A stretch of 32,000 bases of DNA, taken from the NCBI RefSeq assembly GCF_000010625.1, contig NC_010296.1, positions 90,001-122,000 on the forward strand, in the 5' to 3' direction. This DNA is from Microcystis aeruginosa NIES-843. GTDB taxonomy: Bacteria > Cyanobacteriota > Cyanobacteriia > Cyanobacteriales > Microcystaceae. The notes beneath the pieces were generated by a model. It was not told the DNA's origin, made no database searches, and saw only the letters and a program-made list of their open reading frames with translations. The translations under genes were made by a program, and so were the position numbers. Of the stretch, positions 5,761-28,672 are shown in pieces (the stretch's first letter is position 1; the number at the start of each line of letters is the position of its first letter).

Positions 5761-5835
5761 AAATAATTGTGCCTCCCTACTTACTGGGAGTTAGGAGTGA
5801 AATTTCAATTATCTAATATTCAGGAGATTAAGAAA

Positions 5836-6957
5836 GTGGTATCAACGAAAAAAACGGCTTTAATTTACTGTGAAAATCAGTTTGGACGTGTGGACGGAAA
5901 AACGGCAGCTGGCTTGATCAGACAATCAGAAATATATACAATTGTTGGAGTGCTGGATAGTTCCTTAGCGGGAAAAGATGCGGGAGAAGCATTAGGAGAC
6001 AAAAAAAATCATATTCCCATTTTTGCCAATTTACAAACAGCCTTAGAAAAACTTAGAGATGTTCCCAATTGTTATATCTACGGCAAAGCACCCTTAGAAG
6101 CGTTTATTCCCCCCCTAGAAAGACTGCTAATTTTAGAAGCAATGGCACAAGGAATGGAGATTATTAATGGTTTGCATCAATTCTTCTCCGAGGATTTAGA
6201 ATTTAGGGAGCAAGCTAGTCAGTATGGTGTGCAAATTACAGACATTCGTAAACCACCACAATTAGCTGATCTTCATGTATTTACTGGGCAAATTTCCCAA
6301 GTAAATATACCCGTTATTGCCTTTTTAGGAACCGATTGTGCTTGCGGAAAAATGACCACTGCGGTGGCAGTTAATCAAACTCTCCAAGGCTTGGGTATTA
6401 AGTCTGTCTTAGTCGCTACTGGACAAACTAGCTTGATGCAGGGAGCAAGATATGGGGTTTCGATCGATGCTTTGGTTTCTCAATTTGTCATCGGTGAAAT
6501 TGAAAATGCTGTGGTTCAAGCTTTTGAGCAAGAAAAACCCGATATTATTTTAGTGGAAGGACAAAGTTCTCTGAGTCATCCTGCTTTTATGAGTTCCGTG
6601 GGAATTTTGAAAGGAAGTAGGCCCGATGGGATTATTTTACAACATCCCCCAGCCCGAAAATTTCGCTGTGATTTTCCTCATTTAGCCATGCCAAAATTAC
6701 AGGAAGAAATTTCACTAATTGAGGCAATTTCTCCCACTAAAGTTATCGCTATTGCGATTAATCACGAAAATCTCACCGCAGCAGCCACTGAGCGTATTAT
6801 TGCCAAATATGAGCGAGATTTTCAGTTACCGACTACTGATGTTTTGTTACACGGATGTGAGAAATTAGTCCAAGCTTTATGCGATCGCTTTCCGAAATTA
6901 AACCGGAAAATCAAAGGGGAAATTTTAGCTGCAATTCCCGCAATTGGGAGCAAATAG
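5836..6957 (+). CDS. DUF1611-family protein (P-loop-like GTDCACGKMTT motif)
   Basis: The sequence KKTALIYCENQFGRVDGKTAAGLIR...GTDCACGKMTTA is typical of DUF1611 (COG3367). I prefer the GTG start at 5836, which has AGGAG at 5822-5826. The track TTG start at 5767 lies next to the upstream repeat element. Confidence 0.7.
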   Translation: MVSTKKTALIYCENQFGRVDGKTAAGLIRQSEIYTIVGVLDSSLAGKDAGEALGDKKNHIPIFANLQTALEKLRDVPNCYIYGKAPLEAFIPPLERLLILEAMAQGMEIINGLHQFFSEDLEFREQASQYGVQITDIRKPPQLADLHVFTGQISQVNIPVIAFLGTDCACGKMTTAVAVNQTLQGLGIKSVLVATGQTSLMQGARYGVSIDALVSQFVIGEIENAVVQAFEQEKPDIILVEGQSSLSHPAFMSSVGILKGSRPDGIILQHPPARKFRCDFPHLAMPKLQEEISLIEAISPTKVIAIAINHENLTAAATERIIAKYERDFQLPTTDVLLHGCEKLVQALCDRFPKLNRKIKGEILAAIPAIGSK

Positions 6958-8056: not shown

Positions 8057-8280
8057 AAATAGGGTTTGCGGCAAAAAGTTTTTCGGTGGTGGCAGGGTGT
8101 GGGGTGTGGGGTGTGGGGTGTGGGGTTTTACCAGTTTTGAGGTGGCCAATTACCTAATTTTCAGGGAAAAAGTGCCTAAATTTCCCCCCGATCACTCCCA
8201 GATCCAGTACTTTTTGATTGACAAAAGGTCTAAAAGTCTTACCCAACAAGGTTTTTAGATTTATTCAGCAGACCCTATTT
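8057..8280 (+). mobile_element. MITE family copy A (~224 bp) with an internal (GGGGTGT)n array
   Basis: The ends aaatagggtttgcgg and cagcagaccctattt are imperfect inverted repeats. The whole element recurs in reverse orientation at 14220-14417 and 15364-15589. Confidence 0.8.
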
Positions 8281-8395
8281 AGGGGTTGCTGGCTTATCAC
8301 CTTGACATCAGGGCCGTAGAGATTTGTACTCAATTACTATCCTATCGCTAAATTCTGGGAAGAAATCAAAATCCCCCTCAATCCTTAACAAATTC

Positions 8396-9133
8396 CTAAT
8401 CATCTCGTTTGGCATCATGATAAGCCGCCCCGAGGTATAATTCCCCTACTTTCGGGTTATTGAGTAAATCTTGACCCGATCCCTGAAAACGATCTTGACC
8501 ACTTTCTAAAACATAACCTCGATCGGACATCATTAGGGCTTTTTTGGCATTCTGTTCCACTAAAATAATTGCAGTTCCCGTCTGATTAATCGCTTTTATC
8601 TGTTCAAAAACGCTGGTTACTAAGATAGGAGATAAAGCTGCCGAAGGTTCATCGAGAATTAATAAATCTGGTTCCAACATCAGCGCTCGTCCCATGGCTA
8701 ACATCTGTCTTTCTCCTCCGGATAAAGTGCCAGCTTTCTGACGACGGCGCTCAAGCAAACGGGGAAACATGGCATAAATGCGCTCTTTTAGCGGTTTAAT
8801 CGCTTTTTTACTGGTAAAAGCCCCCATTTCCAGATTTTCCTCGATGCTCAGGGACGGAAAAACATTAGCAATTTGGGGAACATAACCCATTCCGAGGGGA
8901 ACGATTTGATTAGATTTCCAACCGGCGATATTTTGTCCCTTAAAAGTGATAGTTCCAGCACTGGGTTTTAATAAACCAAAAATCGTCTTAGCGAGGGTAG
9001 ATTTTCCCGCACCATTGGGACCGATAACCGTGACTAATTCCCCCGGTGCAATGCGAAAGTTAACCCCTTGCAATATGTATAAATCCTGCACATAACCAGC
9101 ATAAACTTGTTCAACTTCTAAAAGATAATCCAT
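8396..9133 (-). CDS. ABC transporter ATP-binding protein, LivF/NatE-like (branched-chain/neutral amino-acid type)
   Basis: It has Walker A GPNGAGKST, signature LSGGERQ and Walker B LLILDEPS, with an N-terminus MDYLLEVEQVYAGY typical of LivF. I chose the start at the ATG 9131-9133 because the upstream 43 codons of the track ORF run through heptamer repeats. Confidence 0.85.
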   Translation of the reverse strand: MDYLLEVEQVYAGYVQDLYILQGVNFRIAPGELVTVIGPNGAGKSTLAKTIFGLLKPSAGTITFKGQNIAGWKSNQIVPLGMGYVPQIANVFPSLSIEENLEMGAFTSKKAIKPLKERIYAMFPRLLERRRQKAGTLSGGERQMLAMGRALMLEPDLLILDEPSAALSPILVTSVFEQIKAINQTGTAIILVEQNAKKALMMSDRGYVLESGQDRFQGSGQDLLNNPKVGELYLGAAYHDAKRDD

Positions 9134-13145: not shown

Positions 13146-13377
13146 AAACTCTCTAGCGAAGACAAACGCCTATTGTATCTTTGAAAACAATCTTATCATT
13201 CTACGCCGTATCAGGGAACGGGGAACTGAAAACTCTTAAGATTGAAACCTAGAGCCTGAGCTTTTTTCTCCAGATAACGGAGGCAGGGGGCAGGAGGCAG
13301 GGGGCTGACGGCTAAAAAACTGATAACTGCTCACTGATTTGATAGCATGGGGGAAAACCTATAGAGGGTTAAGCGGT

Positions 13378-14208
13378 ATGAGTGACTATAAAAATTCTTC
13401 TTCCATGCGCTATTTCCTGGCGGGATTAAAACCCTTTGCCCAACCTTTATTTTGGCTACCGTTAGGAATATTTTCCTTGGCTCTAATTGGTTTGTGGGTA
13501 TATCAACAGAATCCTGAATGGTTGGGTTCGGTATTAGATACCCCAGGAATGTCCTTGGAGGAGCGGGAAATCAGGGCTAACCAGATTACCGATACTCCTC
13601 TCCCCACTGCTGTACCATTGCCGGCCATTCCTGCCCATAATAATACCGCTCGCCTGAACAAACCGGCCTCGACGCAGCCTTTTGACCCTTTAAATACTAA
13701 TCCCGATAACAACCAGAAACCCTCTTTGTTCACCCCGTTAATGCCGCAGCCTAAGCAAAATCAGGCTCCGAAGGCTAGTAAAAGTCTGCAACCGATTCAA
13801 GTGCGACCGATTAGTGGCGACACTAGCAATTATCCTTTACAAAGGGAAATCGAAAATCGCTCGCGGACTAATAACTGGAATAATTTTCCTAATCCCAACC
13901 CCGGGGGCAGCCCGAATCAAGTCAACCCCCAGGGAAATTATTCCCCTGAGCAACAAAATGTTCAGGCCCTACCCTCCCGGAATAATGCCAACCCTAACCC
14001 CGTCCCCGGCTCTAGCAACCAATCCAACTATTATCAACCCCCCGTATATCAGGCCCCCGTCTACGGCAGTCAACCTAACGTCACTGGTTATCCCAATCAG
14101 GGAATGCCACCTAACAATAATGGCACCCCCAATCAAGTTCCACCTCAAAGTATTAACCGAGGTTTCTCCATCCAACAACCCATTAATACCAGGTCTTCTG
14201 GTTACTAG
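13378..14208 (+). CDS. Hypothetical membrane-anchored Pro/Asn/Gln-rich low-complexity protein
   Basis: The ATG is at 13378. One N-terminal hydrophobic helix (LFWLPLGIFSLALIGLWVY) is followed by about 200 aa rich in P, N and Q. Confidence 0.5.
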   Translation: MSDYKNSSSMRYFLAGLKPFAQPLFWLPLGIFSLALIGLWVYQQNPEWLGSVLDTPGMSLEEREIRANQITDTPLPTAVPLPAIPAHNNTARLNKPASTQPFDPLNTNPDNNQKPSLFTPLMPQPKQNQAPKASKSLQPIQVRPISGDTSNYPLQREIENRSRTNNWNNFPNPNPGGSPNQVNPQGNYSPEQQNVQALPSRNNANPNPVPGSSNQSNYYQPPVYQAPVYGSQPNVTGYPNQGMPPNNNGTPNQVPPQSINRGFSIQQPINTRSSGY

Positions 14209-14219
14209 AGGAACTTAGA

Positions 14220-14417
14220 TAGGGTTTGCTGAATAAATCTAAAAACCTTGTTGGATAATATTTTTAGACTTTTTTGAAATCAAAAAGTACCAGCGATTGG
14301 AGTGATTGGGGGGAAAATTCCGGGACTTTTTCCCTGAAAATTAGGTAATTGACCGCCTGAAAATGGGTAAAACCCTACACCCTACCCCCACCAACAAACT
14401 TTTTGCCGCAAACCCTA
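14220..14417 (-). mobile_element. MITE family copy B (~198 bp, heptamer array degenerate)
   Basis: It aligns by eye along its length with the reverse complement of copy A (tagggtttgctgaataaatctaaaaaccttgttgg...ttttgccgcaaacccta). Confidence 0.8.
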
Positions 14418-15305
14418 GATAGGAGCTTGTAGGAAGTCTAATAAAATCGGATTAACTATTTCTGGGGCCTCGTCCTGGGGACAGTGGCCTAAACCGGCTA
14501 AGGGGATAAACTGTTTTACTGTCGGGAATCGTGCTAATTCTTGGCCCAAGGCCAAGGGCTCCCAGGGATCTTCGCTACCCCAAAGCAGAATCGCCCGACA
14601 GGGGAGAATCGGCAGTAGGTCTTCTGGCAGCGGGCCGCCAGAATAAGCGGTAAAAGCGAGGAAAACCTCGATCGCTCCCTGATCTCTGGCGGGTTTTAGG
14701 ATTATTTCTACTAATTCCTCCGTTACCGCTTCCGAGCGCCGATAAGCTTGCAGGAGAATTTTACGCACTGTCTGGGGTTTAGCGATCTGTTGGAAGAAAA
14801 AAGCCCCAATTGCCTTATTTTTTAGAATTATTTGGGCAAAATCTGCGCCTAAACGACGATACCATGGTAATTCCCCCCGTTTTCTTTCGTGCAGTAGTCT
14901 GAGGGAACAATTGATCGCCGCTACCCCAAGGACAAAATCGGGATAATCGACGGCAGCCTGCATGATGGCCACACAACCGATGGAATTACCCGCCAAAAAA
15001 GCAGGACCCCCCACCACTTCCCGACAAAAATCGGCAATTTGCGCCCCCCAAGTCTCGAAAGTGTAATCGATCTCGTTTTTCGGTTCGGGTTTGTCGGAAC
15101 CGCCAAAACCAATTAAATCTAGGGCAAAACAGCGACATTTTTCGCCTAAAACGGGGATATTTTTCCGCCAATGTCCCCAAGATGCCCCAAATCCATGCAC
15201 AAGCACGATCGCAGGTCCCGTCTCCCCCGCACTCTGATAGGTGATTTTGAATCCCCGCCAATGCCAGATTTTTGGTTGTGTCTCTAATCCTAGAATTTGC
15301 TGCAT
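14415..15305 (-). CDS. Alpha/beta-fold hydrolase
   Basis: The oxyanion region is VLVHGFGAS and the nucleophile elbow is GNSIGC. The C-terminal HCPQDE supplies the catalytic His. Confidence 0.85.
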   Translation of the reverse strand: MQQILGLETQPKIWHWRGFKITYQSAGETGPAIVLVHGFGASWGHWRKNIPVLGEKCRCFALDLIGFGGSDKPEPKNEIDYTFETWGAQIADFCREVVGGPAFLAGNSIGCVAIMQAAVDYPDFVLGVAAINCSLRLLHERKRGELPWYRRLGADFAQIILKNKAIGAFFFQQIAKPQTVRKILLQAYRRSEAVTEELVEIILKPARDQGAIEVFLAFTAYSGGPLPEDLLPILPCRAILLWGSEDPWEPLALGQELARFPTVKQFIPLAGLGHCPQDEAPEIVNPILLDFLQAPI

Positions 15306-15363
15306 ATTTTTGTTTATCTGTAAAGTATTTGTTGCTTTTCTTAATATATACTGTCAGGTTAAG

Positions 15364-15589
15364 TAGGGTCTGCTGAATAAATCTAAAAACCTTGTTGGAT
15401 AAGACTTTTGGACTTTTTTCCCCTCAAAAAGTGCCAGCCATTGCGGGGATCGGGGGGAAAATTCCTGGACTTTTTCCCTGAAAATTAGGTAGTTGACCAC
15501 CTGAAAATCGATAAAACCCCACACCCCACACCCCACACCCCACACCCCACACCCTGCCACCACCGAAAAGCTTTTTGCCGCAAACCCTA
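15364..15589 (-). mobile_element. MITE family copy C (~226 bp) with (CCCCACA)x5
   Basis: It has the same ends and core as copies A and B. The heptamer array spans 15517-15554. Confidence 0.8.
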
Positions 15590-15663
15590 AGTAGCGGCTA
15601 GGAGAATGGGAAGTGGGCTGTTAAAGTTCGATCGGGAGTTAATCATACTATTTAAAAGGGATT

Positions 15664-15672
15664 TGGTATAAT
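15664..15672 (+). promoter_or_regulatory. Candidate extended -10 promoter (TGgTATAAT) upstream of the ATPase gene
   Basis: tggtataat lies at 15664-15672, about 120 nt upstream of the ATG at 15793. It is followed by the hairpin ggcgtttt-ttg-aaaacgtc (15685-15703). Confidence 0.3.
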
Positions 15673-15792
15673 ACAGTGTCTATAGGCGTTTTTTGAAAAC
15701 GTCTGCCAAAATTTCTAGCTTCAACGCCTCGATCCTCTCAAGTTATGAGTAGTAGAGTGCGTCTAAGTTTAATCGCTTGCTCCCGGGAAATT

Positions 15793-17148
15793 ATGAGAAT
15801 TAAACAAATTACAGTTAAGCATCTTTTTGGCATATTTGACCATACAATTAATCTCAATATGGAGGAAAGAATAACTATTATTCATGGTAAAAATGGCTTT
15901 GGTAAAACCTCAATACTGCGATTGGTCAATGGCTTTTTTAACTTAAAGTATTCAGATATAAGAGCTATTCCTTTTCAAAAATTTACTATAATTTTTGACG
16001 ATAACAGCTTTGTGGATGTTGTCAAAGCTTCCACCAGTAAGAATAAAAAAAGTAATGTAAGACCAGAGATTGATTTTAATTTTACTTCCTCCGATCAAAA
16101 AGAAAAACTGACTTTTTCTCCTAATTTACTAGACGGGAGAAAAATCCCTTTACTGACCGGCATGATAGCTGATGTCATACCCGGTTTAGATAGAGTTGGA
16201 TCAGAAAAATGGCTCTATACCCCCACAAAAGAAATTCTGGATTTAGAAGATATTTATGAACGATTTGGAGAATATTTACCAAAGCAATTCCAGCAAGAAT
16301 ATCCTGATTGGTTAAATAAAATTCGAGACTCTATTAATGTTCGTTTTATTGAATCACAACGTCTATTAGATATTTCCAATAGTGCCAAAAATGGCAGAAC
16401 TATAAGGATGCCGATGACATTGTACTCTGTGGCCAGCTATTCTGAAGATTTAGCAGAAAATATTCAAACTAAATTAGCAGAGTATGGACAACTATCTCAA
16501 ACTTTAGACCGAACCTTTCCAGCGAGAGTTGTACAAAAAAAGGCATCATTGACCGATGATGAACTAAGGGAAAAAATTGATCAACTTGAAAGCGAAAGAA
16601 ATCAATTAATTAGTGCAGGACTATTGAAAAAAGATGAAGATTCTAACTTCCAAGTTAAAGATAGTATTGATGATAGCACCAGAAAGTTATTATCGGTTTA
16701 TATTGAGGATGTAGATAAAAAGCTCAATGTATTCAATGACATTTATCCTAAAGTAGAGCTATTTAAAAATATAATTAATAAAAAATATTCTTTCAAAAGT
16801 GTTACTATTGATCAAAGCAAAGGGTTTATCTTCACTACCCAGGAAGGGGAGGTTTTATCGCCAACAGATTTATCTTCTGGGGAACAGCACGAATTAGTAA
16901 TTTTATATGAATTGTTATTTAAAGTTAAACCTAATACTTTGATCTTAATTGATAAACCAGAAATGTCACTTCATATTTCATGGCAGCAGGAATTTTTAAA
17001 AGATTTACAGGAAATCACGAAACTTTCCGGGTTAGATATTTTGATGGCTACCCATTCTCCTGATATTATTAATGATCGTTGGGATTTGACAGTTGAATTA
17101 GAGAAACCAAAGCAAAAAAGCAAAGATGAGAGAACAGATAACACCTGA
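15793..17148 (+). CDS. ariA: ABC-type/AAA_15-21-like ATPase, AriA-like (PARIS system ATPase component)
   Basis: It has Walker A GKNGFGKTS (15886-15912), ABC signature LSSGEQ (16870-16887), Walker B LILIDKPE (D at 16951-16953) and H-loop ATHSPD, with a coiled-coil-like insert between the lobes. I prefer the start at the ATG 15793 (MRIKQITVKHLFG) over the track ATG at 15745. Confidence 0.75.
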   Translation: MRIKQITVKHLFGIFDHTINLNMEERITIIHGKNGFGKTSILRLVNGFFNLKYSDIRAIPFQKFTIIFDDNSFVDVVKASTSKNKKSNVRPEIDFNFTSSDQKEKLTFSPNLLDGRKIPLLTGMIADVIPGLDRVGSEKWLYTPTKEILDLEDIYERFGEYLPKQFQQEYPDWLNKIRDSINVRFIESQRLLDISNSAKNGRTIRMPMTLYSVASYSEDLAENIQTKLAEYGQLSQTLDRTFPARVVQKKASLTDDELREKIDQLESERNQLISAGLLKKDEDSNFQVKDSIDDSTRKLLSVYIEDVDKKLNVFNDIYPKVELFKNIINKKYSFKSVTIDQSKGFIFTTQEGEVLSPTDLSSGEQHELVILYELLFKVKPNTLILIDKPEMSLHISWQQEFLKDLQEITKLSGLDILMATHSPDIINDRWDLTVELEKPKQKSKDERTDNT

Positions 17149-17968
17149 CAGAATTGCCAATAGCATTCGTTTACTACGCAGCGATCATGAGGGAGTTTTT
17201 TTAATTGTTGAAGGTCATAGTGATAAACTTATTTATGAGCGATTAGTAAACAAGCAAGAGGTTAGGGTGACAATTGCCTCTGGTAAAAATAATGCTATCA
17301 AAGCATTATCCATCTTAGAAAAAGAAAATTTTTGCCGAGTTGTTGCTGTTATAGATGCGGATTTTTCGAGAATAGAACAGCAAATTTCCGACAGTAATAA
17401 TCTCTTTTTAACCGATGAACATGATTTGGAAATGATGTTAATTAAATCTGCCGCTTTCGATAAATTATTAAAAGAACGAGGAAGTGAAGAAAAAATTGCA
17501 GCTTTTTCCAAAGATATTAGAGAAACTTTACTAAAGTTAGGTCAGGAAATTGGTAAATTAAGATTGCTATCTCTTAGAAATGAGTTAGATTTAAAGTTTG
17601 AAGGATTAAAGTTTGGTAAGTTTATTGACAAAAAGAATCTGTCAATAGATATTGACAAATTAATTATAAGTATCAAAAATCATTCTCAGAAACTGTCCTT
17701 AGACGAACAGCAAATTAAACAGTATTTATCGGTAATTAGCGATGAAAATCATGATCCGTGGCAGCTATGTTGTGGACACGATTTTATCAGTATTTTAGCG
17801 ATCGCACTCTGCAAGGTTTTAGGTACATGGAATGCTAATGATGTTAAAAAAGAAGACTGGGAAAGAGAGTTAAGATTAGCTTATGAGTTATCTTATTTTT
17901 ATCAAACACAAATATATCAACTAATGGTCAATTGGCAATCTAATAATCATCCTTATCAAATATTCTGA
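17126..17968 (+). CDS. ariB: DUF4435/Toprim-like protein, AriB-like (PARIS effector component)
   Basis: The Toprim-type acidic motifs are LIVEGHSD (E29, 17210-17212), VIDADF (D77/D79, 17354-17362) and TDEHDLE. It overlaps the upstream ATPase gene by 23 nt. Confidence 0.7.
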   Translation: MREQITPDRIANSIRLLRSDHEGVFLIVEGHSDKLIYERLVNKQEVRVTIASGKNNAIKALSILEKENFCRVVAVIDADFSRIEQQISDSNNLFLTDEHDLEMMLIKSAAFDKLLKERGSEEKIAAFSKDIRETLLKLGQEIGKLRLLSLRNELDLKFEGLKFGKFIDKKNLSIDIDKLIISIKNHSQKLSLDEQQIKQYLSVISDENHDPWQLCCGHDFISILAIALCKVLGTWNANDVKKEDWERELRLAYELSYFYQTQIYQLMVNWQSNNHPYQIF

Positions 17969-18331
17969 TTTGGCTTATTGCCTTAAGTTTGAGATGATAT
18001 ATTTAACAAATCGGCTCGACTTTGTGTTATAATCAAAGCAAGGCTTTAAAGACGATATTCTCAGCAAATTATGCCTATTGTTCTTCCTGGCACTCTAATT
18101 TCACTGAAAGATTAATTTAACCTTGATCTGTCGGGATTGATTTCTTAACCTGTTAATAAATTGATTTTTTCCCCAGTCAGGCTAGAATCAGTAGGATTAG
18201 CATCCAAGATAATCGGGGTAACTTTGGTTAATCTGGGGCAGTGTAGCCTAAAAAAACGCCAAAAATAGTCAAATTTAGACTTGAGTGGCTTCTTACTAAC
18301 TGTTTAATCTATTATTTAGGTATTAGACTCT

Positions 18332-20500
18332 ATGGCTAAAGCTTCTACCGTAACTTCCGAAATCGATCTTAAAGATTCGCAATATTACTTTAACCGAGAA
18401 TTAAGCTGGTTAGAATTTAATCGTCGCGTGCTTTATGAAGCACTTGATCCTCGGACTCCCCTACTGGAAAGATTAAAATTTACCGCCATTTTTTGTGCCA
18501 ATCTCGACGAATTTTTTATGGTACGGGTGGCAGTTCTTAAACAACAGGTAGAGGCAAATGTAGCCGTTTTAAGTGCCGATGGCCGGACTGCCTCGGAACA
18601 GCTAACCGAGATCAGTAAACGTCTGCGTCCCCTTGTACAACAGCAGGATCGTCTTTTTGAACACACCCTAAAAAATCTCTTAGTGGAACAGGGAATTCAT
18701 CTGATTAACTATGTAGATTTACATCAAGAACAGCGCAATTATCTCCATGATTACTTTGAACAAAATATTTTCCCCGTTTTAACTCCTCTAGCGGTGGATC
18801 CTAGTCATCCTTTTCCCTATATTTCTAATCTTAGTCTCAATTTAGCCGTAGTCGTTCGCGATCCCGACACCGATAAAGAACTATTTGCCAGGGTGAAAGT
18901 GCCGCAGGTTTTCCCCCGTTTTCTGGCATTACCCAAGGAATTACGCCACCAAGACGGAAAAGCTTCGATTTGGACGGGAGTACCCCTTGAACAGGTGGTA
19001 ATGCACAATTTAGAGGCACTTTTCCCCAGCATGATCATTCAAGAATGTTATCCTTTTCGGGTGACGCGCAACGCCGATATCTCCGTCGAAGAAGATGAGG
19101 CCGATGATTTATTATTAGCGATCGAGGAAGAAGTACGCAAGCGCCGCATCGGTAAATCGGCAGTACGTCTGGAAATTCACAGTTCTACCCCTAGCAATAT
19201 TAAAAACCGGATCATGCGCGATCTCGGACTTGAGGAGATCGATGTTTACGATGTGGATGGACTGCTGGGACACAAAGATTTATTTTATTTTATGTCTTTA
19301 CCCTGTCCCGAACTGAAAGATCCGCCTTGGAATCCTGTCACTCCAACAGTTTTACAGGGATTGCGAGAAATAGTTGACGGTAACGAAGACGGTATCCTAG
19401 AACAGGATGGCGAAGATATTTTTACTTTAATTCGCAATAACGATATTCTCGTTCATCACCCTTACCATTCCTTTAGTGCCTCAGTACAACAGTTTATCGC
19501 CCAGGCGGCCTATGATGCCCATGTTTTAGCGATTAAAATGACTTTGTATCGTACTTCCGGAGATTCCCCGATTGTCAATTCCCTGATTGCAGCGGCGGAA
19601 AATGGGAAACAGGTAGCGGCGTTAGTGGAACTAAAAGCACGCTTTGATGAGGAAAATAACATTACTTGGGCGAAAAAGCTCGAACAAGCCGGAGTTCACG
19701 TTGTTTATGGCTTAGTTGGTCTAAAAACCCATACGAAAGTGGTTCTCGTGGTCAGAAAAGAAGGGGATAAAATCCGTCGTTATTTCCATATTGGCACGGG
19801 CAATTATAACCCAAAAACTGCCAAATTATACACTGATTTGGGTTTACTTAGCTGTCGTGAGGATTTGGGGGCAGATATCACCGATTTATTTAACTTTCTG
19901 ACTGGATACTCCCGTCAGCAATCCTATCGCAAACTTTTAATTGCTCCGGTGAGTTTGCGAAAACGGATGTTAGCAATGATCGATCGCGAGGCCAAAAACT
20001 GTAAAAATGGCGGTACGGGGCGCATTGTCGCAAAAATGAACTCTATTGTCGATAAACCGATTATAGAAGCTTTATACGCCGCTTCTCGTGCTGGTGTGCA
20101 GATTGACTTAATTATTCGCGGCATCTGTTGTTTACGACCCGGATTGCCAGAAATAAGCGAAAATATCCGAGTAATTAGCATTATCGGCCGCTTTTTGGAA
20201 CATTCCCGCATTTTTTACTTTTACAATGATGGTCAGGAGGAGGTTTATATTGGTAGCGCCGATTGGATGACGCGGAACCTGACTCGTCGCGTGGAAGCAG
20301 TGACACCCATCGATGAACCAGCGATCGCCAAGGAACTAGAAGAAATTCTCGGCATTATGTTGTCAGATAACCGGCAAGCATGGGAATTACAATCCGACGG
20401 CAGTTATATTCAGCGTCGTGCTGCCAACCAGGGACAGGAAAGCAGTACCCATGTAATTTTGATGGAAAAAGCCCTTAAATCTGCGGGTATTAGTCAATAG
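18332..20500 (+). CDS. ppk1: Polyphosphate kinase 1
   Basis: It is 722 aa. The N-terminus YFNRELSWLEFNRRVL, the autophosphorylated-His region GLKTHTKV and two PLD-like HKD-type domains match the PPK1 family. Confidence 0.95.
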   Translation: MAKASTVTSEIDLKDSQYYFNRELSWLEFNRRVLYEALDPRTPLLERLKFTAIFCANLDEFFMVRVAVLKQQVEANVAVLSADGRTASEQLTEISKRLRPLVQQQDRLFEHTLKNLLVEQGIHLINYVDLHQEQRNYLHDYFEQNIFPVLTPLAVDPSHPFPYISNLSLNLAVVVRDPDTDKELFARVKVPQVFPRFLALPKELRHQDGKASIWTGVPLEQVVMHNLEALFPSMIIQECYPFRVTRNADISVEEDEADDLLLAIEEEVRKRRIGKSAVRLEIHSSTPSNIKNRIMRDLGLEEIDVYDVDGLLGHKDLFYFMSLPCPELKDPPWNPVTPTVLQGLREIVDGNEDGILEQDGEDIFTLIRNNDILVHHPYHSFSASVQQFIAQAAYDAHVLAIKMTLYRTSGDSPIVNSLIAAAENGKQVAALVELKARFDEENNITWAKKLEQAGVHVVYGLVGLKTHTKVVLVVRKEGDKIRRYFHIGTGNYNPKTAKLYTDLGLLSCREDLGADITDLFNFLTGYSRQQSYRKLLIAPVSLRKRMLAMIDREAKNCKNGGTGRIVAKMNSIVDKPIIEALYAASRAGVQIDLIIRGICCLRPGLPEISENIRVISIIGRFLEHSRIFYFYNDGQEEVYIGSADWMTRNLTRRVEAVTPIDEPAIAKELEEILGIMLSDNRQAWELQSDGSYIQRRAANQGQESSTHVILMEKALKSAGISQ

Positions 20501-22484: not shown

Positions 22485-22822
22485 CGAACCTCTCCTTATT
22501 GTTAAGTTTTTTATACTTTGTCTCTATTGTGCCACGAGGAAATAAGGTATGGGGATTTATTTTCTCAATAATTACTGATAACAGTTATCTTAATGGTCAG
22601 GTAGGAGTCGATCGTCGATACCGAATTAGCTTATACTTCATCTTTATGAGAAAAGCTCTCTATCGATCTGTGTGGGGAAATGGGTCTTATACATTCCAGT
22701 CAAATTAAATTTGAGGCGTTGCTGATTTCAGATATGAATCCTCTTTTCTGGGATTTTTAAAACCTAGACCCAAACTAACTTTTGGATACGATTGAACGCC
22801 TTTATTAGCTGTCACCTTCTTT

Positions 22823-23149
22823 TTAACAGTTCATATTTATCCCCCAATGTGAAAATTGGCGGTCTTTGTAGGCAAGGGTAAAAGTGGATAAATAATCTTG
22901 ACCGTCTAAATCGAGATTAAAGGCAGAAAAGCAGACCCACAGACTACGTTTATCAACGGCGACAGAGCGACTAAAAATTTTACTGAGAGTATTGGCAGTC
23001 AGTCCAGTGTGTTGGCTAAGAATGTCTAAGGTGCAGCGAGTGTTTTGTTTTATTTCCCAATTCACTTTAGCACGGTGCAGTTTTTGGTAGCCGATAGAGG
23101 TTAAGATTACGCCGCGCTGACGAGAGGATTTACCCTTTGACTGTTCCAT
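22823..23149 (-). pseudogene. Orphan N-terminal HTH-like domain, probably the 5' fragment of a larger signalling/STAND-type gene
   Basis: RGVILTSIGYQKLHRAK...TLDILSQHTGLTANTLSKIFSR...AVDKRSLWVCFSAFNLDLDGQDYL matches the N-terminal module I recall at the front of very large cyanobacterial NTPase/repeat proteins. Here the ORF stops about 20 codons after the domain. Confidence 0.45.
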
Positions 23150-23392
23150 AAGTTACCTCATCAACATAGAGATTAGCAGAATTTTCCATTATGGTAATCA
23201 GTGGGAATACAAAAAATTACTTTTTTTACAATATTTAAAGTTTGCGCTAGGAGTCAGGATTTTAACTAGGTGAGATCACCGATGATTCTCCTTGAACAGT
23301 TATTATGTACTTAACCTATAGGAGTCCATCGTTATTTAGCGATTGAATGGTGCGATCGCCGTTATGCTTCATCAATTTCCCATAGATTGTGA

Positions 23393-23770
23393 TTAATCCC
23401 ATACGGCATTTTCATAATGATTTAAAATGTGATAATCTTTGGTTAGCAAAATATGGTTATCTACTGAAGCGTTACTAACAATTAAGCGCTCAAAGGGATC
23501 ACGAGTCTCGTTAATAATGACAGACTGATTAATAATTAAATTAAAATCTTTTTTACATACCTTTAAATCAAGGCAACTTACTAATTCTAGAACAATGTCG
23601 TCTGATTTTTCAGTAATTCGCCCAATTTCGTATAAATATTGTAACTCTAGCCTTACTATCGGCGAAATATAGAGTTCATTCTCGTTAATTAGATGTTTGG
23701 CGCAATCGCTTAATTTAGCAGTTAGTCCTGCATAAAGCCAGACAACAATATGAGTATCAAGGTAAATCAA
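23393..23770 (-). CDS. vapC: PIN-domain toxin (VapC family), TA cassette 1
   Basis: The PIN acidic residues are in MIYLDTH, LELQYL, TRDPFERLIV and LTKD. It overlaps the upstream antitoxin gene by 14 nt. Confidence 0.8.
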   Translation of the reverse strand: MIYLDTHIVVWLYAGLTAKLSDCAKHLINENELYISPIVRLELQYLYEIGRITEKSDDIVLELVSCLDLKVCKKDFNLIINQSVIINETRDPFERLIVSNASVDNHILLTKDYHILNHYENAVWD

Positions 23771-23993
23771 GGTTTATCTCCTGTTCCCAACTGATTTGTA
23801 CAAGATCATCGGGATCGCCAATAATGGCTTGAGGACGATAAATTAATTTTTGTAATTTATCTACGGTTTCAACGGGACTAATGATTAATCGTTTGCCGTT
23901 GCGATCAATTTCTAGGGGTTTTCCTGTGTTGAGGATTTCATCGAGCAGTTGGTCTAGGTTATTTTGTAATTTACTTGAGGTGACGCTTTTCAT
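23757..23993 (-). CDS. Antitoxin (Phd/YefM-like), TA cassette 1
   Basis: It is 78 aa, and its N-terminus MKSVTSSKLQNNLDQLLDEILNTGKPLEIDRNGKRL is typical of the Phd/YefM fold. It is translationally coupled to the PIN gene. Confidence 0.7.
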   Translation of the reverse strand: MKSVTSSKLQNNLDQLLDEILNTGKPLEIDRNGKRLIISPVETVDKLQKLIYRPQAIIGDPDDLVQISWEQEINLDLP

Positions 23994-24039
23994 TGCTGGT
24001 CAAGGGAGTAGGGAGTTTTGGGGACGGGAGATATTCGAT

Positions 24040-24068
24040 ATTATAGCGATCACCGTTATGCTTGATAA
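24040..24068 (-). promoter_or_regulatory. Candidate sigma70-type promoter of TA cassette 1 (-35 TTATCA, 17 nt spacer, -10 TATAAT)
   Basis: On the minus strand, TATAAT lies at 24045-24040 and TTATCA at 24068-24063. The GATCGCTATAAT block recurs upstream of TA cassette 2 (24827-24838). Confidence 0.45.
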
Positions 24069-24142
24069 ATTTCCTGACGATGCCCGATTTTGTGGAGATC
24101 AATAATGAAATACTGCTCTGGGCAATCAAATTCTAAGTAAGA
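24056..24142 (-). pseudogene. RelE/ParE-type toxin 3' tail remnant (junction-module copy ii)
   Basis: The minus-strand reading is ...LEFDCPEQYFIIDLHKIGHRQEIYQA*. The ending xxKIGHRxEIY resembles the C-terminus of cyanobacterial RelE-family toxins. No N-terminal part is present. Confidence 0.5.
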
Positions 24143-24567
24143 TTATTAAAATTAGAATCTTGGAACAAAATCCGCAAGTTCTCTTGGGTAAAGTGTTTGT
24201 CATGGGTTAAGACTTCTATAATGCCTCTTTGTTTCATTACAATCATAGAGATGCAATCTGTGAGGCTATAGCCTTTATCAGGACGTTCATCGAATAGTTG
24301 AAATCCAGCTTGTCTTAGTTGAGGCGTGTAAGAAATAATTTCCATATTCGACTCTTGGCAAATTTGAAGGTAGGTAGCAAGAGCTTTTCGACGCATAATA
24401 GCACCTTTAGTTGCAAAATAATTCAGTGTTTCATCTATGATGCCATCGGTAGTTATTAGGTAATCATCTGCATATTTTTGGGCATAATCTAAGGCAATAG
24501 TGTGCCAGTTATCTCTGGGATTAATCAAGGCAATCCAATAAAAGGTATCAGCAAAAATGACTTTCAT
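24133..24567 (-). CDS. vapC: PIN-domain toxin (VapC family), TA cassette 2
   Basis: MKVIFADTFYWIALINPRDNWH...LTDCISMIVMKQRGIIEVLTHDKHF fits the PIN pattern. It lies 2 nt downstream of the small antitoxin ORF. Confidence 0.8.
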   Translation of the reverse strand: MKVIFADTFYWIALINPRDNWHTIALDYAQKYADDYLITTDGIIDETLNYFATKGAIMRRKALATYLQICQESNMEIISYTPQLRQAGFQLFDERPDKGYSLTDCISMIVMKQRGIIEVLTHDKHFTQENLRILFQDSNFNNLT

Positions 24568-24569
24568 TA

Positions 24570-24797
24570 TTATTGTTTTGGTGTGCCATAAAGATAATGA
24601 TCGTGTTGTTCGGCTCCGTCGGTGGGTAAGGTTTCTAGGACTTCTGGGGGAATATCGGCGGTGAGTTCTTCAATGAATTGCCAAAAGGGTTGTTTCGGTT
24701 TGGCGGTTTGGGTTTGATGGAGGAAATCGAGGAGTTGGTGAATGGTTTCATCGGAAGCGGTTTCGATTTCCTGGAGGAGTTGTTCTTTGGCTGTCAT
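24570..24797 (-). CDS. Putative antitoxin of TA cassette 2 (family not recognised)
   Basis: It is a 75-aa acidic ORF immediately upstream of the PIN toxin, in the classical TA layout. Confidence 0.6.
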   Translation of the reverse strand: MTAKEQLLQEIETASDETIHQLLDFLHQTQTAKPKQPFWQFIEELTADIPPEVLETLPTDGAEQHDHYLYGTPKQ

Positions 24798-24878
24798 GGC
24801 TGGTTTGGGATGGGGAGATGTTCCAGATTATAGCGATCTCTATTATAAACAGTTGAAAAAAGTAATTGCCTTTATTTT

Positions 24879-25178
24879 TTAGGGGTTTTCAAAGAAAAAA
24901 GCTTCTAAATCTCGCTCTCCTTTGATAAAAGGCATGATTTCTAGCCCTTGCTCAGTTAAGCGATAGAAAATAATGTAGTTTTTCATCGGTAAGCCACGCA
25001 AATAGGGACGAATCTCTCGATAACTGCGCCCCATTAGAGGAAATTGGCTAAGATAACGACACTTTTTGCTAAACTCTTCTAGGAATTTCTCGCCCGCATT
25101 AATATTGGTATTAGCCAAATAATCAAGAATTTGTTCCATATCTCGAATGGCTTCGGTCGAAATGATGTATTGATTCAT
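24879..25178 (-). CDS. parE: ParE/RelE-family toxin, TA cassette 3
   Basis: It is 99 aa. The pattern ...LEEFSKKCRYLSQFPLMGRSYREIRPYLRGLPMKNYIIFYRL is typical of ParE. Confidence 0.8.
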   Translation of the reverse strand: MNQYIISTEAIRDMEQILDYLANTNINAGEKFLEEFSKKCRYLSQFPLMGRSYREIRPYLRGLPMKNYIIFYRLTEQGLEIMPFIKGERDLEAFFFENP

Positions 25179-25184
25179 GAATAT

Positions 25185-25442
25185 TTAAGCTTCACAGTTT
25201 TTTTGAAGTCTTGCTTTGAGTTGAGCGATCGCGGTTTCTCCATCAATCCCTTCGCTTCGATCTAATTGTTCGGCAGCAATATCAATTTTTTGGCCAATGT
25301 CTTCCACCCATTGTTGATACTGATCGCGTTTACTGAGTAATTGTAAGGCTTCGGCAATAACTTCATCTGGATTGGCATAATGCCCTGTATCTAGTTTGGC
25401 TTCGATCAGCTTTTGGTGTTCGGGTTTTAAAGTTAATTTCAT
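25185..25442 (-). CDS. parD: ParD-family antitoxin, TA cassette 3
   Basis: MKLTLKPEHQKLIEAKLDTGHYANPDEVIAEALQLL is a ribbon-helix-helix ParD pattern. I prefer the ATG at 25440-25442. A minus-strand TATAAT at 25473-25468 overlaps the alternative upstream ATG at 25467-25469. Confidence 0.75.
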   Translation of the reverse strand: MKLTLKPEHQKLIEAKLDTGHYANPDEVIAEALQLLSKRDQYQQWVEDIGQKIDIAAEQLDRSEGIDGETAIAQLKARLQKNCEA

Positions 25443-25526
25443 GGTTGTTAAGGCTTGACTTTTTTTCATTATAGGTTTGTCGCGGTGAAATCATTCCGGG
25501 TTTGCCGAGGCAGAATGATCATTTTA

Positions 25527-25806
25527 CCCACATTCCGCACCCTAAAGTGTCACATTGAAAATTTTATCTAAATCGTCAAAACGATTGCCGGCTCTGAATT
25601 ACAGGCTAATTTGTTTGCCCAGCAGATGCACAATTAGCCCTAAAAATCTGATAGCTCTGATACCAAATTATTGAGATAAACTCTCATTAAGCTGGCGATC
25701 GCTGACTAGAGTGTGACACTTCATAATTCTTAGTAATCGCTAAAAGTCTTACTATACAAGGGCTAGAGCAACTTTTGATTTCAACGACTAGGGTGCGGAA
25801 TGTGGG
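25527..25806. mobile_element. 280-bp MITE with perfect 18-bp terminal inverted repeats and a 6-bp target-site duplication
   Basis: The TIR is cccacattccgcacccta (25527-25544) against tagggtgcggaatgtggg (25789-25806). ATTTTA flanks both sides (25521-25526 and 25807-25812). It has no coding capacity. Confidence 0.8.
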
Positions 25807-25807
25807 A

Positions 25808-26011
25808 TTTTAGAGATTCCCAATCTTCTTGATCCACGATAGGACTGACAATATCCCCTAAGGTTTTGCCTTTACCGATTAAATGAGCAGGGGTCGTGCG
25901 TTTTACTTGGGTCGAGAGAGATGGTTCTTCTTCAATGATAATGATGGCGCGAACATTCTGTGCTTTGGGCTTTTCCCCTAGCCATTGGCTGCGGTCTTGC
26001 GAAGCAAGTGC
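25808..26011 (-). pseudogene. Antitoxin-like gene remnant (no start codon; its native stop is displaced by the MITE)
   Basis: The minus-strand reading is ...QWLGEKPKAQNVRAIIIIEEEPSLSTQVKRTTPAHLIGKGKTLGDIVSPIVDQEDWESLK, which resembles small cyanobacterial antitoxin-type proteins. The frame is closed upstream by a TAG (rc of 26012-26014) and has no ATG/GTG/TTG start. Confidence 0.35.
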
Positions 26012-26166
26012 CTACGGCATCGCCCTCTCAGGTCAAGTCATAATGTTTGAGCATGGTTAAGATTCTCTAACAATTCTTTTAACTAAGTCTACGGTATTGC
26101 AATGATAAGCTAAAACGCACTTAAACCACCTAAAATAGAAATAGTAATTTTAGAAAAATCCTACTT

Positions 26167-27326
26167 ATGCCAGCCAAAGATTTCCTAGACTTAGAAGAAA
26201 AGAAAAACTTACAAAAAGCTCTTAAAGAAGAAGAAAGAGCAGAGGTTAGGGAAAGAATTTTAATGTTTCTCTTGCTAAACGACGGAAAAACTCAACGAGA
26301 AATAGCTGACTTTATTGGCTGTTCACTCAAAACGGTCGCCCATTGGTGTGTTCACGGCGATCCTAACAATTTAGAAAGTCTAGAAGATGGGAGAAAAAAT
26401 GGAAATCATAAAAAAGCCACAGAGGAATATATTAATTTACTATTAAAAATAGTTGATGAAGACCCGAAGGAATTTGGATATGAATTCGGGAGATGGACAG
26501 CGGCAAGATTAGCAGAGCATCTAGAAAAGGAAACAGGAATTAAACTGAGTGGCTCGCAAGTGAGAAGAATATTGAGAAGAAAAAAGTATGTGTATATCTG
26601 GGCGAAATATAGTCTAGAAGATAAGCAAGACAAGAAATTAAGAAAAGCATTTAAAGAAAAATTAGATGAATATTTAAGGTTGGCTAAAGAAAAGCCAGAG
26701 TCAATCCAGGTATGGTTTTGGGACGGGGCTTTCAAGGTGGCGACGCAGGTTCGCCACAGGGTTCCCCTCATGAATGTGGATTTAGTTTGAGAGTAATAAG
26801 AAGGAGAGCTTGGACAAAAAAAGGAAAGCGAAAAAAAGTGAATGGACAAAGAAAAAGAGGAAGGGTGAATGTGATGGGATCCTTAAGATATAATGACAAA
26901 AAACGAGTCTGTTTTATGAGCAAAAAAGGAAATTCAGAAACTTTCCATGAACAATTAAAGAAACTTCATGAAGAGATTCGTCAAGAATGGATAAACTTGG
27001 GAAATCTGCCCGAAGATTTTCGAGAAAAAGGACCGAAGATTATCATTATATTAGACAATGCTAGTTATCACAAAAAGAAAGATGTTATTGAGCAGGTGGA
27101 AAAAGAGTTGCCCAATATTAGGCTAGAGTTTTTACCAGCTTATAGTCCAGATTACAACCTAATAGAATTAGTGTGGCATTCCGCTAAAGAGTACATAGCT
27201 AATCGAGAATTTGAAAATAAAGAAGAACTGGAAAAAGTAGTCAATCAGCTTTTAAATGAAGGGGGATTGATTATTAAATGGAGTAGAAAACTTAAAAATA
27301 AGGGTAATGCTGTCAATGTAACTTAA
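26167..27326 (+). pseudogene. IS630-family DDE transposase disrupted by a 47-nt insertion
   Basis: The N-terminal HTH part ends ...IQVWFWD at 26724. The DDE part resumes ECGFSLRV... at 26772 in another frame, with DNASYHKK and LPAYSPDYNLIELVW motifs downstream. Confidence 0.8.
26725..26771 (+). other. 47-nt hairpin-forming insertion inside the IS630 transposase gene
   Basis: The sequence is ggggctttcaaggtggcgacgcaggttcgccacagggttcccctcat. It has a perfect 7-bp stem gtggcga/tcgccac and outer gggg/cccc pairing. Deleting it in silico fuses WFWD to ECGFSL in frame. Confidence 0.7.
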
Positions 27327-27383
27327 ATGCGTAAAAGCTTAGTTTAGTTTAGTCTGAATTAGGAGTTTCGGCAGAAAAGGGTC

Positions 27384-28628
27384 GGCTCTTCTAGGTTCTG
27401 TGTGAGCATGGTATAATAGTAACACAGAACAGGAGGTGGGTTATGTGGATAAATTTTGATCAACTCCTCGATTTACCAAATGTAACAGTGGTCAATTATC
27501 AAAAAATTGATGAGACAATTTTCCTAAAGCTCGCTCTTTTAAATGAAACAATTGAATGTCCGAATTGCCATCAAACCTTGGACAGAATCAATCAGACAGA
27601 GTATAATCTAGTCAGAGATTTGTCAATATTAGGCAATCGAGTATATTTGGAAGTACCACGCCGCCAGTTTCATTGTCAAAAGTGCCAAAAGTATATCAGC
27701 GAAAGACTAAGTTTTATGAGATTAAGACAGCATCATACAATTCGCTATGAATCGATGATTTATGAGAGAGTAAAAAATTGTAGTATCGAAGAAATAAGTC
27801 GAGAAGAAGGGTTAGGATGGTCAGAAGTTGAGTTAATATTTAATCACTGTGCTAAAGAACTAGAAAAGGAAGAGTGGGAAGCACCAGAACGAATAAGCTT
27901 AGATGAATTTAGTAACTTAAAAGGACACAAAGATTTCATAACAACGGTCGTAGATCTGGACAAGAAAATTTTACTAGATGTGATTAAAGGACATAAGCAA
28001 GAAGAATTAATGGAAGCCTTAAAAGCACAGCCAGAGGCAGTTCGGGAGAAGGTGAAAGAAGTGAGCGTCGATATGTGGTCAGGATTTACAGCAGTGATCA
28101 AGGAATTATTTCCTAATGCTAAAATCATCTATGATCGTTTTCATGTAATGGCTATCATCAATGACGAGCTTAATAAATTGAGAAAATTAATGGGGGTGCA
28201 TGAAAAAGGATTACCTCATTTATTATGGAAGAATAAAGAGGACTTAAAAGACGAGCAAAAACAACAACTAGAAGTTATCCTGAAAGAACATCCCTGCTTG
28301 GGAATAGCCTGGGAAATGAAAGAAGAAATTAGACAAATTTATCAAAGTAGTAGAACGTTCAGAGGTGCTGAGAGAAAATTGGAAAAATGGATAAGAATAG
28401 GCGGAATATTATATGAAAGTGGTGCCAGCATGATCCAGAAGCATTTGCAGGGTATTTGTAATTACTTTGAAAATCATACAACCAACGGATTAATTGAGGG
28501 AATGAATACCAAAATAAAGCTTATTAAAAGAATGAGTTATGGATTTACCAATTTTCAACATCTTCGACTTAAGCTGTTTGCTTGCTTTAATTCATAACAA
28601 AAATTAACACACGAAAACCAGAAGAGCC
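27384..28628 (+). mobile_element. ISL3-family element, copy 1 (1245 bp, apparently intact)
   Basis: IRL is ggctcttctaggttctgtgtg and IRR is cacacgaaaaccagaagagcc. The 7-bp direct repeat AAGGGTC flanks it at 27377-27383 and 28629-28635. Confidence 0.85.
27443..28597 (+). CDS. ISL3 family transposase
   Basis: The N-terminal zinc finger is CPNCHQ...CQKCQ. The DDE region has SVDMWSGF, DRFHV and TNGLIEGMNTKIKLIKRMSYGF. Confidence 0.9.
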   Translation: MWINFDQLLDLPNVTVVNYQKIDETIFLKLALLNETIECPNCHQTLDRINQTEYNLVRDLSILGNRVYLEVPRRQFHCQKCQKYISERLSFMRLRQHHTIRYESMIYERVKNCSIEEISREEGLGWSEVELIFNHCAKELEKEEWEAPERISLDEFSNLKGHKDFITTVVDLDKKILLDVIKGHKQEELMEALKAQPEAVREKVKEVSVDMWSGFTAVIKELFPNAKIIYDRFHVMAIINDELNKLRKLMGVHEKGLPHLLWKNKEDLKDEQKQQLEVILKEHPCLGIAWEMKEEIRQIYQSSRTFRGAERKLEKWIRIGGILYESGASMIQKHLQGICNYFENHTTNGLIEGMNTKIKLIKRMSYGFTNFQHLRLKLFACFNS

Positions 28629-28672
28629 AAGGGTCTATATTCTTCTTAAAAGTCAGGGTTAGGCGATCGCCG

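Follow-up and report, generated by a model that had tools for sequence, protein, structure and literature searches.

We analysed a 32,000-nucleotide stretch of the Microcystis aeruginosa NIES-843 chromosome (NC_010296.1, positions 90,001 to 122,000; hereafter the window, numbered from its first letter). It carries a two-gene cassette that we assign with high confidence to the PARIS family, as a chromosomal member of the AAA_15 plus DUF4435 type, in an allele that lacks the expected catalytic glutamate of its ATPase. The first gene, ariA (15793-17148, plus strand), encodes a Rad50/SMC-like ABC ATPase of 451 aa, and the second, ariB (17126-17968, plus strand), encodes a predicted DUF4435/Toprim nuclease of 280 aa. 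The end of ariA and the start of ariB overlap by 23 nt (17126-17148, plus strand), which implies translational coupling; the 23-nt overlap was kept in all Microcystis loci, with 4 nt instead at the divergent locus L100. The ariA start at 15793 (MRIKQ) was common to all homologues, while an alternative ATG at 15745 was lineage-specific and missing where the 5′ flank differs. The AriA of the window was exactly identical to the NIES-843 proteins BAF99949.1/WP_012263865.1, and M. viridis NIES-102 (AP019314.1) shared 99.7% DNA identity with the window across 17.9 kb.

The cassette has a GC content of 0.319 against a window mean of 0.40 (standard deviation 0.035). Within the 32-kb window it formed the lowest-GC 2.2-kb sliding window, with no other equally low, and among the 26 open reading frames (ORFs) checked, ariB ranked lowest and ariA third lowest in GC. 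A previous inspection of the letters by a model, which we call the sequence-only reading, had already described the pair as an islet more AT-rich than its surroundings and resembling PARIS. The composition agrees with this description, and the two plus-strand ORFs with their overlap lie exactly at the coordinates that it gave. Its G+C spot counts were likewise exact, both inside the pair (16/60 at 15841-15900 and 15/60 at 17581-17640) and outside it (38/60 at 14581-14640 and 32/60 at 18541-18600), and the three motifs that it listed for each protein were all found at the places where it had put them.

We next describe the ATPase. AriA matched the Pfam families AAA_15 over its full length (6e-24) and AAA_21 (3e-13), as the sequence-only reading had expected for a profile search. 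Its top PADLOC hidden Markov models (HMMs) were the AriA models PDLC04164 (3.8e-25) and PDLC02979 (2.6e-23, full length), where the PADLOC evidence consists of best matches of single profile models. The best sequence match of AriA in the PDB, found with HMMER, was E. coli AriA (1e-14). The protein carries a Walker A motif GKNGFGKTS (15886-15912, plus strand; residues 32-40), whose Lys38 corresponds to E. coli K39, an ABC signature LSSGEQ (16870-16887, plus strand; residues 360-365), and an H-loop ATHSPD (17047-17064, plus strand; residues 419-424). In alignment A3 of the cyanobacterial homologues, the three motifs were invariant or nearly so, with no variation at G37, K38, T39 and H421, and the LSSGEQ signature was present in 116 of 120 AriA homologues. 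The AlphaFold2 model of AriA (mean predicted local distance difference test score, pLDDT, 79.9) showed an ATPase head split by a helical, coiled-coil-like insertion (16429-16785, plus strand), with helices at residues 213-248, 255-274, 294-314 and 317-331, so that the coiled-coil-like insert suspected from the letters was recovered as helices at residues 213-331. This fold resembles that of the solved AriA structures: the top 15 Foldseek matches were all E. coli AriA (E 8e-19 to 9e-14), with template modelling (TM) scores of 0.57/0.62 for the best hit and ranges of 0.45-0.57 (query) and 0.59-0.64 (target) among the 15.

The second protein, AriB, matched DUF4435 (1.7e-15), again as had been anticipated, along with a weak match to an OLD-like Toprim, and its top PADLOC model was PDLC02983 (AriB, 2.8e-25). 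Its AlphaFold2 model reached a pLDDT of 97. In a Foldseek search of the PDB with this model, the E. coli AriB chains 8ux9_A and 8v46_D were the only matches with E<1e-3 (E 4.5e-5, probability 1.0, TM 0.54/0.50 over the whole chain), and the next structural match was the C-terminal region of OLD (E 1e-2). Three acidic motifs mark the Toprim site: VEGHSD (17207-17224, plus strand; residues 28-33), whose Glu29 and Asp33 are the counterparts of E. coli E26 and D30; the DxD motif IDADF (17351-17365, plus strand; residues 76-80), in which Asp77 and Asp79 correspond to D88 and E90; and the cluster TDEHDLE (17411-17431, plus strand; residues 96-102), in which Glu102 corresponds to E122. By this correspondence, which was drawn from motif order and spacing and not from a residue-level structural alignment, AriB is predicted to have all five acidic positions of the two-metal Toprim site described for E. 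coli AriB (E26, D30, D88, E90 and E122; PMC11464382). In E. coli, the E90A mutation in AriB abolishes defence (PMC10802264). Among 65 diverse relatives of the Microcystis protein, E29, D77 and D79 were invariant and D33, H99, D100 and E102 were at least 90% conserved.

The published detection rule for PARIS asks for adjacent genes scoring at least 32 bits with AAA_15 or at least 27 bits with AAA_21, plus at least 27 bits with DUF4435 (PMC9122126, Rousset et al. 2022). The two genes overlap, and their products scored 85.7 bits (AAA_15), 51.1 bits (AAA_21) and 57.9 bits (DUF4435). We therefore base the PARIS call, which upholds the identity first proposed from the sequence, on the Pfam and PADLOC HMMs, this rule, the Foldseek structure matches and the two-gene layout conserved in relatives. 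The closest characterized counterpart is the PARIS system of the P4-like satellite of E. coli B185 (PDB 8ux9, 8v45-8v49). In both systems a DUF4435/Toprim gene comes second, after one for an ABC ATPase that has a helical insert, and both share the Walker A, signature and H-loop motifs and the five acidic Toprim positions, and encode proteins of similar length (451/280 aa in Microcystis and 464/306 aa in E. coli B185); both predicted Microcystis folds matched the E. coli proteins best. Unlike the E. coli system, the Microcystis cassette is chromosomal and stands beside ppk1 without a satellite or prophage, its genes overlap by 23 nt, and its allele has Lys in place of the catalytic Glu of Walker B.

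The sequence-only reading had described PARIS as studied mainly in satellite hotspots of enterobacteria. Outside enterobacteria the system is not unusual: a published survey reported it from diverse clades, in 5.2% of prokaryotic genomes (PMC9122126), and the present clade is widespread in cyanobacteria. We identified AriA relatives with 52-59% identity in Rippkaea (PCC 8801), Gloeothece (PCC 7424), Cylindrospermum, Nostoc, Dolichospermum, Planktothrix, Spirulina and Chroococcidiopsis, among others. They agree with the Microcystis protein in length and motifs and differ from it in having the canonical Walker B Glu, save P0327 (Lys) and P0346 (Asp), and their annotations go no further than DUF4435, AAA family ATPase or 'excinuclease ATPase subunit'. 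The AriB-like family comprised 3,035 representatives at 50% clustering. A pair of the same clade was found in the cI-int hotspot of the P2-like Yersinia phage vB_YenM_31.17 (AriA 34% identical, E 2e-67; AriB 28%, E 3e-13). This find connects the cyanobacterial pair with the systems of phage hotspots from which PARIS first became known. The phage pair has the same gene order and full-length similarity in AriA; in contrast to the Microcystis pair, it is phage-borne, lies in a classical P2 hotspot between cI and int, and has the canonical Walker B LIDEPE. No close ariAB relative was found in a cyanophage or plasmid, where the best matches were 28-35% identical. Nor did we find a dedicated report on PARIS in Microcystis or cyanobacteria; the literature hits concerned the city of that name or were general surveys.

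One feature of the NIES-843 allele departs from this picture and had been missed in the sequence-only reading, although it bears on whether this copy works. The Walker B motif of AriA reads LILIDKPE (16939-16962, plus strand) and not LILIDEPE; the codon AAA at 16954-16956 places Lys388 where the catalytic Glu is expected, and a single G-to-A change at 16954 gives the Lys allele. In the HMMER alignment to 8ux9/8v46, K388 stands opposite E. coli E393 (VLIDEPE, or VLIDQPE in the E393Q structures), so the catalytic Glu that characterizes PARIS AriA is missing from NIES-843. Among the 120 closest database homologues of AriA, Walker B carried DE in 112, DK in 2 and DD in 1, and the Glu position was at least 90% conserved in alignment A3. 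Judged from these sequences, the missing Glu is a property of the allele and not of the clade. The two departures among the cyanobacterial homologues, LILIDKPEISLH in P0327 and LILIDDPELSLH in P0346, indicate that the catalytic Glu has been lost or altered repeatedly in the clade.

The Lys allele proved to be common within Microcystis. Lys was found in 8 of 14 sampled members of a 74-member cluster formed at 90% identity; NIES-843 and NIES-102 carry Lys, NIES-298 carries Glu, and both alleles occur in bloom populations as well as in culture strains. The AAA codon was also present in four metagenome contigs and in other metagenome-assembled genomes. A sequencing error was rejected as its source, since two complete genomes and no fewer than six independent contigs carry it. 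Compared with the nearest Glu allele, the NIES-843 protein further differs by K83N, E92K, N200I and E257Q, and there was no compensating change in the other ATPase motifs. The carriers of Lys were not monophyletic on the AriA protein tree; they share one common haplotype block (ariA nt ~800-1240) within otherwise divergent cassettes. The pattern of sequence variation suggests that Lys within Microcystis most likely had a single origin and was spread by recombination; recurrent mutation within the genus is less likely, as the carriers share the nt 800-1240 block.

We also examined variation along the two genes. Among 38 Microcystis ariA alleles, allelic entropy reached its maximum in residues 76-180 (16018-16332, plus strand), where most of the diversity lies, and this segment was unconserved across the cyanobacterial homologues too. 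The ratio of nonsynonymous to synonymous substitution rates (dN/dS) of ariA was 1.78 in residues 76-180 and 0.31 in the remainder when compared with L090, and 0.84 and 0.17, respectively, when compared with L100. For ariB it was 0.30-0.46, and for the neighbouring ppk1 0.06-0.12. Both ariA and ariB are under purifying selection. In E. coli AriA, the trigger is bound by pore loops around R116/R119 that show little conservation, and the published view of PARIS is one of conserved signalling and effector parts combined with diversifying trigger-binding pores (PMC11464382). The dN/dS pattern of the Microcystis genes fits this view, and we regard residues 76-180 as a candidate trigger-sensing surface that may correspond in position to the R116/R119 pore loops.

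The constant right neighbour of the cassette in Microcystis is ppk1 (polyphosphate kinase 1; 18332-20500, plus strand). When related genomes were compared, as the sequence-only reading had proposed, ariA, ariB and ppk1 were linked in all Microcystis ppk1 loci that reach far enough to tell, with one candidate empty site (L095) as the exception, and the pair was missing from the sister genus Pannus, where PP2C and ppk1 are neighbours with no ariAB between them. At L095 (positions 1-815; ENA ERZ27271755, a megahit metagenome contig), the flank on the polyketide synthase (PKS) side runs straight into a single ppk1 upstream region with no ariAB. This contig apparently represents a cassette-free allele. 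An assembly chimera through a 329-bp repeat is a less likely explanation; the single-nucleotide polymorphisms of L095 argue against it, since from the very start of the repeat they agree with its right-hand copy.

The left flank of the cassette was variable. An alpha/beta-hydrolase gene (14415-15305, minus strand) is its left neighbour in the NIES-843 lineage only; NIES-298-type genomes have a gene resembling PKS or nonribosomal peptide synthetase genes there, and L100 has a Lactamase_B gene. In the loci L007-L009, from representatives of other Microcystis species, homology to the window stops at 15358-15364. In L007 and L008 the hydrolase gene is present, and neither ariAB nor ppk1 was found within 8 kb beyond the breakpoint; L009 extends only ~0.7 kb beyond it. 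In the divergent lineage L100/L101 (L100 2148-5718), AriA was 84% (443 aa) and AriB 85% identical to the window proteins. In a blastn comparison, L100 1999-4362 was 88% identical to window 15671-18012, and ppk1 likewise showed ~88% DNA identity; this equal divergence of cassette and ppk1 indicates that the cassette is old in the genus. A 412-aa C5 cytosine DNA methyltransferase (PADLOC MTase_II, 2e-108) lies between ariB and ppk1 in L100/L101, so that the site upstream of ppk1 acts as a small defence hotspot; no restriction enzyme was called at the L100 locus.

These comparisons bear on the proposal that the pair was horizontally acquired between the hydrolase gene and ppk1. A foreign origin of ariAB is plausible from its composition and its absence in Pannus. 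A recent insertion at that place is contradicted by the linkage to ppk1, the variable left flank and the ~88% identity that the cassette shares with ppk1 in this comparison: ariAB is not recent, and it did not insert between the hydrolase gene and ppk1. Neither a tRNA gene nor a phage element was found near the cassette.

The NIES-298-type genomes (L087-L091) have a further arrangement, in which ariAB stands between the two copies of a 329-bp direct repeat (5684-6012 and 8307-8633). The repeated unit is the ppk1 upstream region (18094-18331 in the window, plus strand) together with the first 79 nt of ppk1, and the window has its right copy only, from 18094 to about 18420. The left copy abuts the ariA ATG exactly, and the duplication yields a ppk1′ leader ORF of 29 codons with a stop that overlaps the start of ariA. 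To judge from this arrangement, it is presumably the duplicate ppk1 promoter that drives ariA in these genomes. Such a repeat structure is what one would expect if a circular fragment with ariAB and ppk1′ had entered an empty ppk1 site by Campbell-type integration.

In the window, the native upstream region of the cassette (15671-15792, plus strand) is shared with the divergent L100 cassette, as detected by blastn, and with L104, whose left flank is identical to this region. A consensus promoter and terminator scan of 15300-18400 yielded no convincing candidate for ariA, and behind ariB it listed no terminator. By eye, we read a candidate extended -10 element for ariA, TGGTATAAT (15664-15672, plus strand), about 120 nt upstream of the gene; the scan did not list it since it has no -35 element. 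An imperfect hairpin, GGCGTTTTTTGAAAACGTC, lies downstream of it (window 15664-15700), and the equivalent of the -10 element in L010 is TAGCATAAT. The candidate element and the hairpin may represent the native promoter and leader of the cassette. When the ariB-ppk1 spacer was folded, z was 0.5, and neither Rfam at the gathering threshold nor ARAGORN matched anywhere in the whole window.

To the left of the upstream region lies a 223-bp miniature inverted-repeat transposable element (MITE; 15365-15587), which ends in terminal repeats AGGGTYTGC and is flanked by the target-site duplication TAAGT (15360-15364 and 15588-15592). The sequence-only reading had recognised this MITE and regarded it as the left border of the islet. 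It is a true MITE, but L010, from another Microcystis genome, has a clean empty site in which 15364 is joined directly to 15588 and the cassette upstream sequence is uninterrupted, indicating that the MITE is an independent insertion and not an islet border. Two more copies of the family lie in the window at 14215-14432 and, inverted, at 8060-8281; the three copies, of about 225 bp, the one beside ariA being listed at 15359-15604, have a (CCCCA)n tract inside and duplications of 5 bp (TAAGT, TAGAT). The two direct copies bracket the hydrolase gene and could promote its rearrangement. A second short repeat with a hairpin, CCGTCGTAAAACGACGG, was found at window 2571-2664 and at L010 1-94; in Microcystis sp. 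LSC13-02, a copy lies at the window equivalent of 15746/15747, just upstream of ariA, at a contig end.

Elsewhere in the window, an IS200/IS605 element (901-2627) has an intact Y1 transposase gene, tnpA (2196-2627, plus strand), and a tnpB on the minus strand that is split into 1472-2146 (HTH_OrfB_IS605/OrfB_IS605) and 901-1383 (Cas12f1-like TNB domain) and is probably frameshifted. The region 22800-32000 is dense in toxin-antitoxin genes (PIN/PhdYeFM, ParE), followed by IS630-type (HTH plus DDE_3, split ORFs) and ISL3 transposase genes. A 300-nt direct repeat occurs at 27376-27675 and 28772-29071 with 97% identity, and the window has extra sequence compared with NIES-102 around 27.4-28.6 kb. 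An ORF at 13339-14208 encodes a 289-aa Pro/Asn/Gln-rich low-complexity protein with no Pfam match; it showed 78-92% amino acid identity between Microcystis strains, as against 97-98% for the adjacent hydrolase.

We modelled the working of the AriA-AriB complex, its trigger and its RNA target on the homologous system of E. coli B185. AriA would form an oligomer through its ATPase heads and helical insert, and this oligomer would keep the AriB Toprim nuclease inactive; in the known PARIS system it is a hexamer that cages three AriB, and activation comes from a phage anti-restriction protein or another protein. Binding of a phage protein to the variable surface of AriA, together with ATP binding and hydrolysis, would free AriB, which would then dimerise and cleave an essential RNA (tRNA in E. 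coli); RNA cleavage would arrest translation and abort the infection. In E. coli AriA, the E393Q mutation abolishes ATP hydrolysis, protection against T7, Ocr binding and AriB release, while AriB is still held (PMC10802264), and E393A is ATPase-defective (PMC11464382). By analogy, Lys388 would block hydrolysis, so that the NIES-843 AriA would neutralise AriB yet could not fire. We consider it somewhat better than an even chance that the protein is hydrolysis-dead and cages AriB without trigger binding or release, that is, that NIES-843 carries a 'locked' or disarmed PARIS. Overall, a PARIS cassette in a locked allele is, with good confidence, the best explanation of the locus.

Several observations weigh against this reading. 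Sequence identity to the E. coli PARIS model is just 14-18%. Neither phmmer nor a profile of 65 AriB sequences recovered the E. coli AriB chains from the PDB sequences; these searches matched only the Toprim protein 1t6t and RNase M5, and the AriB homologue of the Yersinia phage likewise failed to reach E. coli AriB by sequence. This failure indicates a distant clade, and the link to E. coli AriB was obtained by structure only. Given the low identity and the failed profile, stoichiometry, trigger and RNA target may differ from those of E. coli, cyanobacterial PARIS being known from sequences and models. The analogy for Lys388 itself rests on E-to-Q and E-to-A mutants and not on E-to-K. Moreover, the frequent Lys allele (8/14, as above) occurs on two or more haplotype backgrounds, in cassettes that are intact and have an intact ariB, and recurs independently in the 58%-identity lineage P0327. 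Simple decay does not predict an allele that is common, intact and recurrent, so Lys could be tolerated or could reflect an altered mode of action.

The main rival starts from these same points and holds that PARIS is fully functional in NIES-843, with Lys388 tolerated or adaptive and the Glu/Lys difference tuning sensitivity without acting as an on/off switch. Signalling would then proceed by ATP binding alone, or catalysis would be taken over by Glu390 (DKPE) or a partner residue. The frequency of the allele in intact cassettes and several backgrounds keeps this possibility open, and the recurrence in P0327 and the two open genes, with all catalytic residues in AriB, also favour it. We nevertheless regard it as doubtful, since Glu is kept in 112 of 120 homologues and in at least 90% of alignment A3, E393Q and E393A kill the E. 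coli ATPase and E393Q its defence, and a positive charge beside the Mg-ATP site is a non-conservative change, as judged from general knowledge of ABC ATPases. Another explanation, which we consider rather improbable, is that the pair is a selfish toxin-antitoxin or addiction remnant (AriB as toxin, AriA as antitoxin) with no defence role, Lys being a step of domestication or decay. PARIS does behave as a toxin-antitoxin pair of type II in E. coli (PMC10802264), the window is rich in toxin-antitoxin pairs and transposase genes, and a hydrolysis-dead AriA would still neutralise AriB. However, the raised dN/dS and intraspecific diversity of the AriA sensing region are as expected under phage-driven selection, Glu alleles are widely maintained, and deletion of either gene was non-toxic (Rousset et al., PMC9122126).

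Two further explanations were given very little weight. The pair could be an ABC ATPase with a Toprim or other nuclease outside PARIS (class 2 OLD-like, Gabija-like, Septu/retron PtuAB-like or AbiL), as PtuA, NsnB and ATPase-Toprim models matched AriA at 1e-22 to 1e-16 and AbiLii and OLD-Toprim models matched AriB weakly (0.004 and 0.02). OLD nucleases and PtuA share the AAA_15/21 ABC ATPase fold, OLD also has a Toprim nuclease, and both families supplied the second-best structural matches. But related ATPases have this fold by common descent (PMC11464382), and the best HMMs and structures for both proteins were AriA and AriB; retron PtuA, the next structural match of AriA, was much weaker than E. 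coli AriA (E 3e-12 and TM 0.38 vs 8e-19 and 0.57). In OLD the ATPase and Toprim are fused and PtuA has an HNH nuclease as its partner; here we found neither a fused Toprim as in OLD/GajA nor an HNH partner as in PtuB, the partner being a separate, full-length DUF4435 protein. These differences make an identity outside PARIS very unlikely. Still less credible is a housekeeping or regulatory role in polyphosphate metabolism, for which the constant linkage to the adjoining ppk1 in Microcystis and the position of NIES-298-type ariA behind a duplicated ppk1 promoter might be cited: the pair is missing at ppk1 in Pannus and at the apparent empty site L095, its homologues stand in unrelated contexts, including a phage hotspot, and its composition is atypical.

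Taken as a PARIS system, the Microcystis cassette is an ordinary member of a known, widespread family, and its host is known for a very large repertoire of defences. Calling it PARIS is routine annotation and supplies a fitting name for Microcystis genes that are now labelled DUF4435, RNase M5, AAA family ATPase or excinuclease ATPase subunit. The hypervariable segment of AriA marks a probable sensing site for cyanophage triggers. The more useful result is the natural polymorphism at the catalytic site, which is the feature worth an experiment. We tentatively suggest, as an idea with a small chance of being right, that Lys388 is a selectively maintained 'safety-on' state in a high-frequency, recombination-shuffled polymorphism of armed and disarmed cassettes in Microcystis populations, with the cost of autoimmunity set against protection from phages; if so, NIES-843, the reference strain, would be disarmed. 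The Glu and Lys alleles provide a ready-made isogenic contrast for PARIS function in cyanobacteria, and with them one can ask whether, in nature, abortive-infection systems are turned off and yet stay in the genome.

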